A stretch of 64,000 bases of DNA, taken from assembly GCA_046482545.1 (NCBI GenBank), contig JAWOEX010000009.1, positions 1-64,000 on the forward strand, in the 5' to 3' direction. Within the stretch, counting starts at the first letter, position 1; the number at the start of each line of letters is the position of its first letter. The position numbers were made by a program, and so were the translations under genes. Shown piece after piece: positions 20,930 through 63,809 of the stretch. The notes under the pieces were generated by a model that had not been told where the DNA came from, did not search any database, and worked only from the letters and a program-made list of their open reading frames with translations. Origin of the DNA: Candidatus Thorarchaeota archaeon (GTDB lineage: Archaea; Asgardarchaeota; Thorarchaeia; Thorarchaeales; Thorarchaeaceae).

Positions 20930-21140
20930 TACAATTCGCCTTCCCTTATGACTAAGATGGTGCCCTATTCAGGCTCCAGCTTTAGGCAAATTCTTGAGAT
21001 TATAAAAGATATGGTTTCAACCATCCAGTATCCTAACAGCTGAATGTTTGTATGTCATCTGACGCCAGGCTTCATGAATCTCACAAGTCACAATCGTTAT
21101 AATACCTCTAGCTTCACTCCGTTTATCCTGCTGGAGAAAG

Positions 21141-22319
21141 GTGCTAAACCTTATGGAATCTCTATTCATCTTTGCTATTGTTGGGGCAGTTTACCTCCTA
21201 GTCTATTTGATGGCCCGCGCTCTCGGTATTGAGAAGTTAAGAGAGAAAGGGGTCGACGCTGGCACGCCATTCTTCGTAATGATTCGCACCAAGAAAATCA
21301 ATGAATTCTTGACACGCATGGGTAAGAAGTTTCCTCGCGCGTTTTTCAATATCGGTGTAGTTGTCGCCTTTGGCGGTATGATTTACGGTTTCTGGATGTT
21401 TCTCAACAATCTACTCGCGTTCTTTATCGCTCCTTCACAAGCTGGAGCGGTGGTTCCCATCATTCCAGGCATCACCATAACCGGTCTACCACTGGTCTAT
21501 ATGCTCATTGGTCTGGCTATCACTTTGGTTACACACGAATTTGCCCATGGACTAGCTTCAGCAAAGGACAACATAGGAATTGAAAGCTCAGGTCTACTGT
21601 TTTTCTTCGTTCTATTTGGTGCCTTTGTTGAACCTGATGAGGAGGAATTTGAAGAGGAAGCCACACCAAAAGAACGAATGCGCCTGCTTGCCGCTGGCTC
21701 CTATTCGAATCTCATATTTGCTTTCATTGTTTTAGTTATTACGTTAAACTTCCCCGTTTTGATGTCAATTGGGTTCAACCAACCAAGTGGTGCATACATA
21801 TACGACATCTCAGCTGACACCCCGGCCGATCAAGCCCTTGAGATTGGAGATGTTATTACTGGCTTGAACAATACCGATATCGACAAGTGGAACGAAATTA
21901 GCCAATTCATGGCGAATACAGAACCCGGCGACTCCCTAACTATTGAGACACTTGAGGGCAACGTCACTATAGTGCTAGGGGCGAGTACCGCTAACGCATC
22001 AAAAGGTTACATTGGTATATATGGGGCCGATTATTGGAAACCTAAGCCGGGATGGGATTTCATCCTCAACCCCATGGTACCTTTTCATTTACAGCTCACT
22101 CTGACCTGGACTTTCATCATTCTATTCAGCGTGGCTCTGTTCAATTTGCTTCCCATTCCTGCGCTAGATGGCGACAAGTTACTGGCTAATGGTCTTCGCC
22201 TTGCGATTTCAGATGAGAAAAAGGTCAGCATGATTATGTGGCCCATGAGAATCTTCTCACTTGCGATTGTAGTTTTGAGCATGATTCTGACTTTCATGAG
22301 CGGAAAAACGCTGTTCTGA
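21141..22319 (+). CDS. Site-2 protease (M50) with PDZ insert
   Basis: HEFAH, GAFVEP, AAGS..N, FNLLPIPALDG. Confidence 0.93.
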   Translation: MLNLMESLFIFAIVGAVYLLVYLMARALGIEKLREKGVDAGTPFFVMIRTKKINEFLTRMGKKFPRAFFNIGVVVAFGGMIYGFWMFLNNLLAFFIAPSQAGAVVPIIPGITITGLPLVYMLIGLAITLVTHEFAHGLASAKDNIGIESSGLLFFFVLFGAFVEPDEEEFEEEATPKERMRLLAAGSYSNLIFAFIVLVITLNFPVLMSIGFNQPSGAYIYDISADTPADQALEIGDVITGLNNTDIDKWNEISQFMANTEPGDSLTIETLEGNVTIVLGASTANASKGYIGIYGADYWKPKPGWDFILNPMVPFHLQLTLTWTFIILFSVALFNLLPIPALDGDKLLANGLRLAISDEKKVSMIMWPMRIFSLAIVVLSMILTFMSGKTLF

Positions 22320-22447
22320 TAGTATGGTCATACATAAAGCGGAAACTCCATTGGTCCGTGGCATTCTTGGAGCTCACTAATCATGCTTTATCAGCTAGAA
22401 AAGCAGTTTTAACCCAGCTTTACAAGTCTTTTCTGAAGCTGACCGAC

Positions 22448-23380
22448 ATGTCCCCTCAATGTTCTAGATGTACTAGAGAGGCAGTCTACTTTCGCTGCTA
22501 TACAGAGGAAAAGCTATGCAAAAGATGCCTTTTGGATACAACACTGGACAAAATCAGGGAAACCATCAACCAGAGGGGCATGTTCAAGCGCGATGATAGA
22601 ATCATAGTTGCAATTTCTGGTGGCAAAGATAGTGCGGTCCTTCTTGATGCCCTAGTCCGAATAGAAGCGGCATATCCCGAAACAGAATTATGCCCCGTCA
22701 CTATCGATGAAGGCATTACAGGTTATAGAGACGAAGCTCTGAAAACTGCAAAAGAGCTTACATCCAATCTGGGCCTTAATCTTACTGTTTTATCGTTCAA
22801 TGATTTGTTTGGTTATTCCCTAGACGAAATCGTGGCAAATCGAGAGGAGAATGGACTTGGTGCATGTTCATATTGTGGCATCCTGAGGCGAAGGGCAATC
22901 AACAATGCAGCTCGAAAGATTGATGGAAATGTTATAACGACCGGGCACAACCTAGATGATGAAGCACAAACAGTAGTCATGAATGTACTAAGGGGCGACG
23001 CACATCGCATCGGGCGGATGAATCGCACTCGAGGTGGCACAATGGAAGGGTTCATTCCCCGCGTGAAGCCCATCACAAGACTCTCTGAGCGGGATATCGT
23101 CGCATATGCACATCACTTCTCATTACCGTATCATGATGCTCCCTGTCCATATGCCCATGAAGCCTACCGAAACGATGTCCGCCAGTTTCTCAACAGAATG
23201 GAACAGAAGCGCCCGGGCACACTTCTGGGAATACTTGGGTCATCCGAGAAAATTGCTGAAGCTATGAGGGCGGATACTTCTTCGTCCCAGTTCAATTCGT
23301 GTACTCGATGTGGCAATCCAACATCCGCAAAGGTGTGTAGAGTGTGCAAAATCCTTGAAAAAATCGGGGAGGCAATGTGA
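22448..23380 (+). CDS. tRNA 2-thiolation protein (NcsA/TtuA family)
   Basis: SGGKDS, CSYCG.LRR, GHNLDDE, CPY, terminal Zn fingers. Confidence 0.92.
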   Translation: MSPQCSRCTREAVYFRCYTEEKLCKRCLLDTTLDKIRETINQRGMFKRDDRIIVAISGGKDSAVLLDALVRIEAAYPETELCPVTIDEGITGYRDEALKTAKELTSNLGLNLTVLSFNDLFGYSLDEIVANREENGLGACSYCGILRRRAINNAARKIDGNVITTGHNLDDEAQTVVMNVLRGDAHRIGRMNRTRGGTMEGFIPRVKPITRLSERDIVAYAHHFSLPYHDAPCPYAHEAYRNDVRQFLNRMEQKRPGTLLGILGSSEKIAEAMRADTSSSQFNSCTRCGNPTSAKVCRVCKILEKIGEAM

Positions 23381-29185: not shown

Positions 29186-30493
29186 CTATAGATTCAAATC
29201 GTCAAACATGACGATTTTCATAGCTCTTGGCTTATTCTCTATCTCTGCAGTTGCTGCTGCAACCAAGATTTTGATCCCTTTCACTTTGGCAGTATCAACT
29301 AGGCGTTGTGTTACAACTCCATCTAGGACAATCGCTTTTGCGTCATCCAACGAATCAAGCACATCAGTTAATTCTGCTACCCCGCATTCCTTGATGAGAT
29401 TATCCTTCCTATCAAAGACAGCAGCTTTGAAGCTTTCTTTGAGCTCTTTTGCCTCGTTTACATAGGCTTCATTCACTCTTTTGCGCTTGGGTTTTGGAGG
29501 CGGCTTTTCACGCGGTTTTCTTTCCTCTTTCTTCTTTTGAGACGGCCTTTTTTCTTTCTTGCTTGGCGGTTTCTTCCGCTTTCTTTTCTTCGCTTCTCTC
29601 TTGTCTTCTTTCTCCTTCTCAAGCAAACTCAAGGCTTGTTCAGCAGGTATCTTTCTCTTAAGCGCCCTTGATACTGCCTTCCGATTCAAATCTTCGACTT
29701 CTTTTCCCTTTGGTGCTCTTGCGATATAGTCTATATCCGCAACCTGCATCAGCTCTCGAAGTATCAACTCTCCCCCTCGGTCGCCATCCAAGAATGCAGT
29801 GATTTTCTTCCCTTTTTCCTTTGAGAGTTCTGAAATCGAATCTGGGATGTTAGTTCCTTCTGCTGAAATTGTGTTCGTTACCCCGCTCTTCATAAGATTG
29901 ATAACATCAGCTCGCCCTTCGACGATAATTACCTCATCACTCTCAGGCATACTTGGGCCCGCAGGCAGTTTGTCTTCACCATACTTGGTGATGCCCCTCT
30001 TTTTCGCCCTTGTTACCGCATCAGTTATCTCGTCAGCACCTGGAGCGATTTCTTCTTCCCATCCTTTCAAAATGCTGATGGCTCTGCTGACCACTCTTCT
30101 ACGTTTCGCACCACGGATATCTTCCACCTTCTGCAGCGTAACCTCCGCTGAACATGGTCCAACCCGATCCACGGTTTCCATTGATGCAGCAAGGATAGCT
30201 GTAGCTGTTCGATCCATCGATACGGGGATTACGATTTCTCCCTTGCTTTTTCCCTTTTCTGATTTTATTCCTATCTGAATTCTACCAATACGTCCGCTTC
30301 GTTGAAGTTCTCTGAGATCCAAATCTTCGCCCAGTAATCCTTCTGTTTGACCAAATATTGCCCCAACGACATCTGGCTTGTCAACAACACCATCTATCTC
30401 AATTTTTGCTCTAATAACGTATTTCGCAGTAGAATTATCAAAGTCTCCTGCTCCCATATATGCATCTCCTTTTCTCTTGTATGTATCTGTCAC
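29186..30493 (-). CDS. dnaG: Archaeal DnaG (TOPRIM; exosome-associated)
   Basis: DVVGAIFGQTEGLLG, VEGRADV, FLDGDRGG. Confidence 0.96.
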   Translation of the reverse strand: MTDTYKRKGDAYMGAGDFDNSTAKYVIRAKIEIDGVVDKPDVVGAIFGQTEGLLGEDLDLRELQRSGRIGRIQIGIKSEKGKSKGEIVIPVSMDRTATAILAASMETVDRVGPCSAEVTLQKVEDIRGAKRRRVVSRAISILKGWEEEIAPGADEITDAVTRAKKRGITKYGEDKLPAGPSMPESDEVIIVEGRADVINLMKSGVTNTISAEGTNIPDSISELSKEKGKKITAFLDGDRGGELILRELMQVADIDYIARAPKGKEVEDLNRKAVSRALKRKIPAEQALSLLEKEKEDKREAKKRKRKKPPSKKEKRPSQKKKEERKPREKPPPKPKRKRVNEAYVNEAKELKESFKAAVFDRKDNLIKECGVAELTDVLDSLDDAKAIVLDGVVTQRLVDTAKVKGIKILVAAATAEIENKPRAMKIVMFDDLNL

Positions 30494-30950
30494 CTGCCCC
30501 CAACGGACTCGCCAGTATGTTCTATGCGCAACTAATCATACCGGCGAATTATGCCGTTTCACCTATCTCATGAACCGCTACTTGATTCTTGGTAGGAATC
30601 CAGCTTGTTCTATATGTTTATGCTGTTTCAGTGATGAGCGAATGAATCTGTGAATTGCAATTCTCATATGATTGGCCAGGCGCATATTGATCCCAAGCTA
30701 TCCCATTGAGGACGCCATGACACTTGTGATGTGATGATATGATGATAGTAAAGCTTAGCCGCATTATGCTGTTAAGCCTTACATGGGGGATGAATTCATG
30801 TGTATATTTGAAGATGTCGCTATAGTCAGATACTCGCTTCAAAATACAATTTCTGGGACTTGACTGGAGCCAGAATGTCATTGTTTACCTCTGTTTGTGT
30901 ATCTAGTTCTTTGAAAAACCTAATAACTGTACAAACACTAGCACAACTTG

Positions 30951-31238
30951 CTCAGATGAAACAGCCCCCTTTCGAGGGCACACTGAGATTTTCGATGATG
31001 TGATTGCGCATAAAAGGCGGGGACAAGCTGGGCACAACCGTTTGAGATACAATGAGCCGTAACGGACTCTGGTGATATGGGTGAATGCCCAAAGATGAGC
31101 TGCGAGTCACCCCGGCATCATACATCAGCGGCCGGTTGATACATACGATGCCCAACATGAGACATCCCGGCGAAGCCAGAGGTAACCTCTGATGCGAGGA
31201 TGCTGGGCGTTAGTGCATTGGGCTACAGTATCAACCGG
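30951..31238 (+). ncRNA. Structured ncRNA (about 290 nt), family unknown
   Basis: Three stem-loop domains incl. 11-bp CCGGTTGATAC/GTATCAACCGG; promoter-like element upstream, U-tract downstream. Confidence 0.6.
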
Positions 31239-31292
31239 ATTATACCCTGTTTCTCTGATTTTTACCGCTATAAGCAGTTCGTATGTTAGCCT

Positions 31293-31967
31293 TTAGAATG
31301 TAATTTCAAGAGTATCGCCAGGCTTCATGACCTTTACTTCGGTTTCTGGTACCCTGTCTCCCACGAGTTCCTTGAACTCCTCTGGATTCGCCTCGATTGG
31401 TGGGAACGTACCATAGTGCATTGGCACCACTAATTGTGGTTTCAGCAGTTCAGTTGCCAAAGACGCCTGTTCCACATCCATAGTATAGTAACTGCCAATC
31501 GGAAGCATTGCCAAGTCAGGTGAGTACAGTTCCCGAAAGAGCTCCATACTTGAGAACACGCCGGTGTCACCTGCATGGTAAAAGGTAAAGCTCGGCATTT
31601 TTACAATAAACCCAGTTGGTGCTCCTTCTCCACAGGAATGGAAAGCCTGCACGAGGGTCACCCGCACATTATCAATATTTATACTGCCGCCAATATTGAG
31701 TGTGTGCACCTTTTCCAAACCCCTCTCCTTGGCGTCAATCGCTAGCTCGTTGATTGCAATGAAATACGCACCGGTTTTTTCACATATTTTTCTGGCCTCA
31801 GCGTAGCCATGGTCCTGATGGTCGTGCGTCACCAAGACGATATCCGCGTCAGCTACATCGTCCACGCTCATGGGTGATGCGGGCCCGCCAAGCCAAGGAT
31901 CCACATAGATTGTTTTGTTATCTGATTCAACCTTAAATCCTGCATGTCCGAGATACGTCACTTTCAT
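31293..31967 (-). CDS. Metallo-beta-lactamase fold hydrolase (UPF0173)
   Basis: YLGHA, THDHQDH, YHAGDT, PMHYGTF. Confidence 0.92.
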   Translation of the reverse strand: MKVTYLGHAGFKVESDNKTIYVDPWLGGPASPMSVDDVADADIVLVTHDHQDHGYAEARKICEKTGAYFIAINELAIDAKERGLEKVHTLNIGGSINIDNVRVTLVQAFHSCGEGAPTGFIVKMPSFTFYHAGDTGVFSSMELFRELYSPDLAMLPIGSYYTMDVEQASLATELLKPQLVVPMHYGTFPPIEANPEEFKELVGDRVPETEVKVMKPGDTLEITF

Positions 31968-32099
31968 AATTTTCTTCATCTCCTGTATTCTAATCTTCCT
32001 TACGCACGAACTTCTATGTTTCGTTATGATGTCTGTCTTCACTGCGCCATAGAACAGCTTAAAGATAGAATATCGGAGATTCTCAGTGTCGAGATTGAG

Positions 32100-32993
32100 A
32101 TGGCAACTAAACCTCATCCGGATTCATTAGAGGCAGGCCAAATTGCAGCAAAAGTTCTTGATGAAACTATAGGACTTGTGACACCTGGTAGGAATGTCAT
32201 CGATATTTGTGAGTTTGCAGAAAAGAAAATTCGCGAATTGGGTGCTCATCCCGCTTTTCCTTGCAACGTTTCTATCAATAGTGAAGCAGCCCACTACTCC
32301 AGCCCTTATGGTGATACACGAAAGGTTCCTGAAAAGGGGCTGATTAAGGTTGACCTTGGAGCCCACGTAAACGGCCATATATCCGATACTGCCAGAACAG
32401 TAGATTTGGATGGCTCTTTTGGACATTACATTGCCGCTGTAGAGGATGCTCTTCAAGCTGCCATAGATATGGTTCGCCCAGGTGTGAAAACGGGCCAAGT
32501 TGGAGCAGCTATTGAAGATGCAATTCGTTATTATGATCTTCAACCTGTGTATCAGCTTTCAGGCCATGAATTGAAACCATGGATATTGCATGCCGGCCGC
32601 AATGTGCCGAATGTGGGCTCACGAAAGGGCGACATAATGAAATCTGGGGATACTTTCGCAATCGAACCGTTCGCTACAGATGGGGATGGCTCAATTACTA
32701 GCGACCAAAGAATGTATATCTTCAGGAATAATATGTCCAGTGGCACCCATCTGGAAAGTACCACAAAACAGCTCAGAGACAGAGCACGACGTTTATTCGG
32801 CTCACTGCCTTGGGCTTCGCGGTGGATTTATGATACCAGCTTAGATATGGCGTATCAACTCAAAACTATGTTACGTAAACGAGTAATCACAGGTTATCCT
32901 GTTCTGTTGGATGCGAAAGGTGGCATGGTCTCACAAAGGGAGCACACCGTATTTGTAGGCGAAGATGGAGCAATCGTAACTACGAAGGATTAG
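32100..32993 (+). CDS. map: Type II methionine aminopeptidase
   Basis: AFPC, AAHY, D..D, GH, AIEPF, EHT. Confidence 0.92.
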   Translation: MATKPHPDSLEAGQIAAKVLDETIGLVTPGRNVIDICEFAEKKIRELGAHPAFPCNVSINSEAAHYSSPYGDTRKVPEKGLIKVDLGAHVNGHISDTARTVDLDGSFGHYIAAVEDALQAAIDMVRPGVKTGQVGAAIEDAIRYYDLQPVYQLSGHELKPWILHAGRNVPNVGSRKGDIMKSGDTFAIEPFATDGDGSITSDQRMYIFRNNMSSGTHLESTTKQLRDRARRLFGSLPWASRWIYDTSLDMAYQLKTMLRKRVITGYPVLLDAKGGMVSQREHTVFVGEDGAIVTTKD

Positions 32994-33004
32994 GAGAATA
33001 GATT

Positions 33005-33904
33005 ATGAGTCAGGAACCCACAGGTGCTCATAAACAGGCGGGGAAAATTGCAGCAAAGGTACGAGATGAGACCGCAGAAAAACTGGAACCTGGCATGAAG
33101 ATAGTAGAAGTTTGCGAGTACGCAGAATCAAGAATTACTGAGCTTGGTGGGAAACCCGCATTTCCATGCAATGTTTCTATTGATCACATCGCAGCACACT
33201 ATACCTCTCCCCGAAATGACGAGTCTATTCTCCCGGATAGTGGTTTGGTTAAGATTGACATTGGTGTCCACGTAGATGGCTACATAGCAGATACAGCTCG
33301 GACAGTAGATCTGACCAGAGAATTGGAGGGCTTCATTGCTGCAACTGATGACGCATTGCAGGAAGCTATCGAACTCATGCAACCAAGCACATCCTTGGGT
33401 GACATCGGATCAAAAATCGAAGATGTCATTGGTGCCTATGGTTTGAGACCCATCCGCAATCTTAGCGGCCATGAGATGAAAAGGTACAGGCTTCATGGCG
33501 GCAAAAGGGTCCCAAATGTAAAAGAACGGTTTACTGACAAAATTGAGGCGGGGGAAACCTATGCGATTGAACCATTCGCCACTACTGGTACTGGAAAGGT
33601 GACTGATACCAAATACACATACATTTTTTCAAATACCAGAGCGGAAGTCACACTTGATGATGTGACTCAAAAACTCAGAGATCATCTACTGAAGAATTAT
33701 GGCCCTTTTCCTTTTGCTGCTAGGTGGGTGGGGACACGGAATGATGATTTAGAACTTGAAAAAGAATTTGTGAAGCTTTTGGATTCGAATGCAATCAAAC
33801 CCTATCCGGTTCTGGTAGAAAAAGGGAATCGACCCGTCGCACAATCAGAGCATACTGTTTTTGTTGGACGGGGACGGACCCTCACCTTGACCTTGCGGAA
33901 CTGA
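33005..33904 (+). CDS. map: Type II methionine aminopeptidase (second copy)
   Basis: Same motif set intact. Confidence 0.92.
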   Translation: MSQEPTGAHKQAGKIAAKVRDETAEKLEPGMKIVEVCEYAESRITELGGKPAFPCNVSIDHIAAHYTSPRNDESILPDSGLVKIDIGVHVDGYIADTARTVDLTRELEGFIAATDDALQEAIELMQPSTSLGDIGSKIEDVIGAYGLRPIRNLSGHEMKRYRLHGGKRVPNVKERFTDKIEAGETYAIEPFATTGTGKVTDTKYTYIFSNTRAEVTLDDVTQKLRDHLLKNYGPFPFAARWVGTRNDDLELEKEFVKLLDSNAIKPYPVLVEKGNRPVAQSEHTVFVGRGRTLTLTLRN

Positions 33905-35412: not shown

Positions 35413-35508
35413 GAACTCAGAACAATCTTGACATCTTTTAATGATTTAGATGCCCGTGAAAATGTAGTCTCCCCTTTCTCGGTATTGAGAAACTGGTAGA
35501 ATAGAGAA

Positions 35509-35624
35509 TGGCCAGTTTGCGGGCCTGTCACGAGCGCTAGCCCGCACATATCCCGCAACGACCCCGGGCTTAACTTCCGCGTTCGGCCGAGAGCGGGTGG
35601 GCCCCGGGGACTATGACCGGCCTA
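35509..35624 (-). rRNA. rrf: 5S rRNA (stand-alone)
   Basis: GGCCGGU/ACUGGCC terminal helix, CAUAG, CCGAAC..GAAGUUAAGCC conserved motifs, about 116 nt. Confidence 0.9.
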
Positions 35625-63578: not shown

Positions 63579-63809
63579 TTGAGACGCTTAGGAAGAGTAA
63601 TTCACATTTCGAAGACAGAATCAATTATTCTCAGAACCAAAAAGATTCCTGCAATCGGGGCATCTGTTGTGGATAAGAGTCTAGACCGCATTGGCACCGT
63701 AACGGATGTGTTCGGTCCAGTGAAATATCCTTATGTAGCAGTCTCCCCCGCTGGAAAGGTAGACAAGAAGCGTCTCCCAAACACGGTTTTATACCTCTAC
63801 GAAGAATAA
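63579..63809 (+). CDS. gar1: H/ACA RNP component Gar1
   Basis: LG.V.H, IG.V.DVFGPV..PY. Confidence 0.9.
   Translation: MRRLGRVIHISKTESIILRTKKIPAIGASVVDKSLDRIGTVTDVFGPVKYPYVAVSPAGKVDKKRLPNTVLYLYEE

Follow-up and report, generated by a model that had tools for sequence, protein, structure and literature searches.

The closest described relatives of the RNA analysed here are HgcG, Pab40, Pf7, Pho40 and Afu4 (Rfam RF00064; PMC2377435, PMC4652768), which in the cited parts of these papers likewise comprise three motifs, each with a K-turn and an ACA box. According to the cited sections of PMC2377435, the motifs of Pab40, Pf7 and Afu4 are directed to 2588, the 2678 equivalent and 2016 of the P. 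abyssi 23S rRNA, the first and last motifs of Pab40 being active in vitro, and P. abyssi lacks a modification at the equivalent of E. coli 2586 despite having Pab40. For Haloferax volcanii, the cited parts of PMC7075261 (see also PMC2584109) describe that sR-h45 makes the equivalents of 2586, 1915 and 1917 in vivo, with an unpaired UAUG as the source of the latter two, and that of a run of uridines the most 5' unpaired one is modified (PMC7075261); the halophile site is given as the 2586 equivalent (PMC2584109). Equivalent sites are guided by yeast snR46/human ACA16 (yeast 25S 2865) and yeast snR191/human U19 (2258 and 2260) according to the cited parts of PMC8307265, PMC3542256 and PMC7075261, where yeast 2865 corresponds to E. 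coli 2496 by an offset of 369 (PMC2584109). In contrast to the archaeal RNAs, these snoRNAs are described with two hairpins, an H box and no K-turn, snR191 using one hairpin per site. A literature search returned, by title and abstract, general papers and none on Asgard H/ACA guides.

A window of 64,000 nucleotides (the whole stretch of DNA that was analysed) from a Thorarchaeota genome was examined, in which a preliminary description had placed a structured RNA upstream of dnaG. In clusters formed at 90% identity, proteins encoded in the window group with ones labelled Candidatus Thorarchaeota or Promethearchaeia. The gene and its surroundings were determined as follows:

30950..31238, plus strand: predicted three-motif box H/ACA guide RNA gene, with ends set by the outer helices
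30913..30926, plus strand: BRE and TATA-like element, a putative promoter about 25 nt 5' of the RNA
31259..31263, plus strand: U-tract, a possible terminator judging from its sequence
29186..30457, minus strand: dnaG, divergent neighbour (Pfam Toprim and NCBI name)
31293..31967, minus strand: metallo-beta-lactamase-fold hydrolase gene, convergent neighbour

The RNA gene at about 30950-31238 on the plus strand is real and conserved across the Asgard archaea. The stretch showed a folding energy of -102.1 kcal/mol with a z of -2.71, which was equalled by 1 of 200 shuffled sequences, and a z of -2.94 was obtained against shuffles when the flanks were included. BLAST found one copy in each of 15 of 36 genomes of the family. 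With a covariance model (R1) constructed from 16 copies, the RNA was detected in 75 of the 80 family genomes, among them all 23 of good quality (this genome counted), and in 33 genomes from 13 other families of the phylum; in this genome it is single-copy. One family genome showed a second, weak R1 match of 29 bits (G196:C201:3654-3959), which could be a paralogue or a contaminant. No credible open reading frame covers 30950-31238, and a tRNA/tmRNA search of the window returned none. Position and sequence of the BRE/TATA-like element are near-invariant across 16 homologues, with variable sequence around it, and the homologues carry pyrimidine-rich trailers 3' of the RNA. A minus-strand RNA was ruled out, with boxes, K-turns and promoter element all lying on the plus strand. 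Since the SRP and RNase P RNAs sit elsewhere in the genome, the preliminary description is supported in proposing a discrete structured non-coding RNA other than SRP RNA, and it also placed the BRE/TATA-like element, the U-tract (31259-31263) and an 11-bp stem (31132-42/31228-38) correctly. The 3' trailer (31247-31257) can pair with the 5' end (30953-30964); by eye, this pairing was seen also in one genome of the same genus and not across the family.

Based on the model matches, the RNA is a diverged homologue of the HgcG/Pab40-type archaeal H/ACA guide RNA (RF00064), which replaces the earlier statement that it belongs to no recognised family. Rfam searches with the window copy, both at the cut-off and at E up to 10, gave no relevant match, to RF00064 or otherwise. 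One family homologue matched RF00064 end to end (E of 6.5e-4), and seven more Asgard homologues matched it as well, giving eight in all with a best match of 43 bits (E of 1.7e-8). All of them lie below the gathering cut-off of 77 bits, and the RNA is therefore counted as a homologue of RF00064 and not as a formal Rfam member. In the reverse direction, R1 found three above-cut-off HgcG members (E of 2e-6 to 6e-4), a Thermococci copy (E of 4e-9) and, in three copies from halophiles, the third motif, so that homology was detectable in both directions.

The alignment of 16 homologues showed three ACA/ANA boxes and three conserved pairs of GA steps. RNAalifold and the single-sequence fold agreed on three domains, each comprising an H/ACA hairpin on a basal helix (all on the plus strand):

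30950..31033, plus strand: domain 1; basal helix 30950-55/31028-33, motif 1 lower stem 30965-71/31013-20 and upper stem 30978-83/31000-07
30984..30999, plus strand: K-turn 1; GA 30985-86, bulge 30994-96, GA 30997-98, both GA steps invariant in 16 homologues
31023..31025, plus strand: ACA box 1, located 15 nt from where the 3' guide strand begins, invariant in the alignment
31039..31131, plus strand: domain 2; basal helix 31039-45/31125-31, motif 2 lower stem 31052-59/31113-21 and upper stem about 31065-73/31099-31108
31074..31098, plus strand: K-turn 2 and apical hairpin; GA 31074-75, bulge 31094-96, GA 31097-98, GA steps invariant and apical stem compensatory
31122..31124, plus strand: ACA box 2, 14 nt after C31108, invariant in the alignment
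31132..31238, plus strand: domain 3; 11-bp basal helix 31132-42/31228-38, motif 3 lower stem 31150-58/31213-23 and upper stem 31166-72/31201-07
31173..31200, plus strand: K-turn 3 and apical hairpin; AA 31173-74, bulge 31196-98, GA 31199-200
31225..31227, plus strand: ACA box 3, both A invariant

In this fold, 95.0% of the cells of the 16 homologues were paired and 38 of 74 pairs were compensatory compared to 17.7 in shuffles; when the partners were slid, pairing fell to 36-43% and the compensatory pairs to 6-10. The basal helices contribute 5 of 6 compensatory pairs in domain 1 (98% paired), 5 of 7 in domain 2 (95% paired) and 7 of 10 in domain 3, and the lower stem of motif 1 contributes 4 of 7. 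Lower stem, internal-loop pocket and upper stem in each of the three hairpins, with an ACA/ANA box 3' of each lower stem, correspond to the archaeal H/ACA type, which comprises one to three hairpins. The K-turns sit 10, 10 and 9 nt above pockets 1, 2 and 3, as expected for this type (9-10 nt). K-turn 3 carries AA at 31173-74, where most homologues show GA; the A for G is found in the three genomes of this genus. For K-turn 1, we infer that it is an L7Ae site. Regarding the preliminary description, the number of three consecutive domains held, and the stem drawn for domain 3 is the third basal helix, but boundaries and pairs of the first two domains had to be redrawn: their pairs formed in only 75% of the cells, with 8 compensatory pairs compared to 6.6 in shuffles, and the helices of the UUCG-capped hairpin and of the inner domain 2 stems formed in 52-69%. 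Of the two G-UAA-C loops described, the first is the pocket 2 guide strand and the second a variable apical loop.

The 23S and 16S genes of the genome were recovered, and 1128 rRNA uridines were scored against the pockets, averaged over 16 homologues. A scan that used only the window copy had given spurious top matches including 5S rRNA, which were gone after averaging. Among the 1128 uridines, motif 1 ranked 23S U2850 first, motif 2 ranked U2939 and U2940 first in a tie, and motif 3 ranked U2053 and U2051 first; each bipartite target site was found once in the rRNA. Based on the numbering in the cited part of PMC2584109 and the distance of 90 nt between U2850 and U2940, these positions correspond to E. 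coli 2496 (U2850, yeast 2865), 2585/2586 (U2939/U2940), 1917 (U2053) and 1915 (U2051). The same distance separates 2588 and 2678 in P. abyssi. The target search in rRNA proposed beforehand was the right test, with the pockets ranking the HgcG-type sites first and the three motifs pointing to 2496, 2586 and 1915/1917 in the order of the HgcG group. The guide strands are as follows:

30972..30977, plus strand: pocket 1, 5' guide strand, complementary to 23S 3' of U2850, core invariant
31008..31012, plus strand: pocket 1, 3' guide strand, 3 bp with 23S 5' of U2850
31061..31067, plus strand: pocket 2, 5' guide strand, 6 of 7 paired with 23S 3' of U2940-A2941 (E. coli 2586)
31108..31112, plus strand: pocket 2, 3' guide strand, forming 4 bp with 23S E. 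coli 2581-2584 and placing a C opposite U2585
31159..31163, plus strand: pocket 3, 5' guide strand, forming 5 bp with helix 69 on the 3' side of the loop
31209..31214, plus strand: pocket 3, 3' guide strand, forming 6 bp with helix 69 on the 5' side of U2051 (E. coli 1915)

The spacing between target and ACA box was n+16 for U2850, n+15 for U2940, n+15 for U2053 and n+17 for U2051, the last also being found in a Haloferax copy; bipartite complementarity around a uridine 14-16 nt from the ACA box is the arrangement of archaeal H/ACA RNAs. Counting against the assignment, one side of pocket 1 comprises just 3 Watson-Crick pairs in this copy, pocket 2 contains two mismatches and a guide strand able to extend the upper stem, and K-turn 3 carries the A for G; the lack of an RF00064 match for the window copy and the below-cut-off scores of its homologues weigh in the same direction.

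Pockets 2 and 3 covary with the 23S rRNA across genomes. For pocket 2, a guide AACGG faces 23S CCGUU in 15 of 15 family genomes, and a guide GACGG faces CCGUC in one genome inside (G006) and one outside the family (G071). For pocket 3, GAGAC or GAGGC occurs with GUCUC in 15 of 16, GAGAG with CUCUC in four other Asgard genomes, and GAGGG with CCCUC in three Euryarchaeota (relatives of Methanothrix, Methanococcoides and Haloferax). Exceptions are G015 and G021, and several distant copies of pocket 2 pair less well. Since the genomes are related, this covariation represents few independent changes rather than many.

Compared to HgcG/Pab40, the strands of pocket 1 and the 3' strand of pocket 3 are near-identical, the models match reciprocally, and the order of targets is shared, with P. 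abyssi 2588, 2678 and 2016 in the cited literature corresponding to E. coli 2496, 2586 and 1915. The Thorarchaeota RNA differs in its length of about 290 nt, in the basal helix around every ACA box, in scores below the Rfam cut-off, in guide strands adapted to its own 23S, and in CACC instead of AACC in pocket 2. SL1 and SL2 of sR-h45, as described in the cited parts of PMC7075261 and PMC2584109, correspond to motifs 2 and 3, and sR-h45 differs by the absence of motif 1 and by a linker of 56 nt. The Haloferax copy and the Thorarchaeota RNA have the 3' guide strand of motif 3, the 16-nt spacing and the unpaired UAUG in common, which predicts both 1915 and 1917 as targets.

Altogether, we are highly confident that the gene encodes an archaeal box H/ACA guide RNA with three motifs, predicted to be transcribed independently, which in Thorarchaeota corresponds to Pab40/Pf7/Afu4 (HgcG) and to Haloferax sR-h45. 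Cbf5, Nop10, Gar1 and L7Ae, the proteins of archaeal H/ACA particles, were all detected above cut-off in this genome; the Gar1 gene lies in the same window (63585-63773, plus strand), and the Cbf5 gene (contig C34 of this genome, G000, 21067-22473, minus strand) is the immediate upstream neighbour of the gene for RNase P RNA. In the proposed mechanism, L7Ae would bind the K-turn of each motif and Cbf5-Nop10-Gar1 its lower stem and ACA box, the pocket would clamp the pre-23S rRNA on either side of a uridine, at a distance of about 15 nt to the ACA box, and the clamped uridine would be isomerised to pseudouridine by Cbf5. Motif 1 would thereby act on U2850 (E. coli 2496, yeast 2865), motif 2 on U2940 (E. 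coli 2586) and motif 3 on U2051 and probably also U2053 (E. coli 1915 and 1917, helix 69). The extra helix past each ACA box probably insulates folding and protects the ends, assuming that Cbf5 accepts an ACA inside a helix-closed loop.

The target of motif 2 is ambiguous between U2585 and U2586, because the 3' strand of pocket 2 reads CACC in 43 of 43 scored family loci compared to AACC, with an A opposite U2585, in most other lineages. Accordingly, motif 2 of the Thorarchaeota could be shifted by one base, with the 3' guide strand having lost the A that pairs U2585, so that U2585 instead of U2586 would be modified. This is consistent with the tie of U2939 and U2940 in the uridine scan and with the preference for the most 5' unpaired uridine of a run described for Haloferax in the cited part of PMC7075261. 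However, the distance from the CCC/GGG duplex to the ACA box is the same as in Euryarchaeota, which leaves the n+15 ruler at U2586, and the halophile site is the 2586 equivalent according to the cited part of PMC2584109. The spacing therefore favours U2586, and we consider a shift to U2585 unlikely.

An extra basal helix enclosing each ACA box is a trait of the Asgard copies, and the cited passages of the literature contain no description of such helices. A duplex test with shuffled controls was applied to the sequence beyond the ACA box, with crude windows that make the counts approximate. For motifs 1, 2 and 3, respectively, the helix was significant in 8 of 12, 13 of 16 and 15 of 16 copies from Thorarchaeota, in 1 of 19, 11 of 18 and 16 of 22 copies from other Asgard archaea, and in 0 of 6, 0 of 6 and 1 of 7 euryarchaeal copies. 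In 17 of 19 copies of the other Asgard archaea, motif 1 was closed by a fourth K-turn, compared to 0 of 12 in Thorarchaeota. Whole motifs were lost as well: of 43 family loci, 5 (L043, L044, L045, L046 and L049) have a lost or degenerate motif 1, with the target uridine kept in the 23S rRNA; a genome of the same order (L051) has no motif 2, and motif 1 is absent from L080 and L084, the genome of L080 (G043) also showing a G for C beside the motif 1 target. In the inspected loci without motif 1 the basal helix remains, which suggests a role of its own for this helix. A more far-reaching idea, which we put forward only tentatively, is that in Asgard copies every motif forms a closed cassette, with the ACA in an internal loop over the basal helix and with the fourth K-turn outside Thorarchaeota, that would change assembly, processing or stability of the particle; pocket 2 of the Thorarchaeota copies may also have shifted to U2585, a base of the catalytic centre.

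The loss of motif 1 with retention of its uridine could also be explained by an H/ACA-derived, protein-binding RNA whose main role is to chaperone the folding of pre-23S rRNA, at least one of its pockets being catalytically silent. The atypical pockets 2 and 3, with mismatches beside the target, and P. abyssi, which in the cited part of PMC2377435 lacks the 2586-equivalent modification in spite of Pab40, point in the same direction. In contrast, the spacing of the ACA boxes and the K-turns fit the catalytic rules, and the atypical motif 3 matches SL2 of Haloferax, which is described as active in vivo (PMC7075261, cited part). A chaperone is thus improbable compared to a guide for pseudouridylation.

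With respect to its neighbourhood, the guide RNA gene adjoins dnaG in 48 of 48 family loci, in 6 of 23 other Asgard loci and in one Woesearchaeota locus, and for 39 of the 48 family loci the metallo-beta-lactamase-fold gene falls inside the sequence that was fetched. The constant position beside dnaG could indicate an RNA-DnaG-RNA ribonucleoprotein module. But no dnaG was found within about 1.5 kb in 17 of 23 other Asgard and 10 of 11 non-Asgard loci, rRNA pairing and protein boxes already explain the conserved single strands, and the synteny is explicable by a shared divergent promoter region, which makes such a module highly improbable. The Woesearchaeota locus (L260) carries a single-motif copy of motif 3, and the gene order may be old. 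In another genome (G071, locus L082), the 23S rRNA gene is followed on its own strand, after about 160 bases, by the guide gene. Between dnaG and the guide gene, a second conserved non-coding element was observed at 30620-30830, with an end motif in 47 of 48 family loci. On the minus strand, it comprises a promoter-like motif at about 30803-30822, a hairpin whose G-U pairs favour this strand, and two UCAU/UCAC repeat tracts flanking a variable stem. Rfam gave no family above cut-off for this element, and RNAalifold no consensus fold for the neighbouring conserved stretch. It is probably a long dnaG leader, and, speculatively, its repeats could bind a KH-domain protein. Elsewhere in the window, two methionine aminopeptidase genes of about 49% identity lie in tandem (31944-33904, plus strand), and there is a diverged 5S rRNA gene (35507-35624, minus strand, 49 bits) that is not linked to the genes for 16S and 23S rRNA.

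UGA-containing words and a length near 300 nt could suggest a methylation guide of the box C/D type, or else an SRP or RNase P RNA that has diverged. These readings can practically be dismissed, since the first C-box-like word is unconserved, the other box C/D-like words of the preliminary description are K-turn strands, neither conserved C and D boxes flanking guides of 10-21 nt nor any C/D family match were found inside the RNA, and the SRP RNA (RF01857, helix 8 loop and long helix 5) and RNase P RNA (RF00373, P4 regions), without a match here, were found above cut-off on contigs C28 and C34. A resemblance, noted by eye, to U6 snRNA or to domain V of group II introns was dropped, as the words concerned are pocket and stem sequences.

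The assignment as a three-motif box H/ACA guide RNA fills an annotation gap, namely a gene that was missed by Rfam. Class, mechanism and targets were already known, and it is the gene itself that was previously unannotated. Its basal helices, together with the gain and loss of whole motifs, provide structural variants that can be tested, and its presence in Asgard archaea supports the published view that the guided sites predate eukaryotes.
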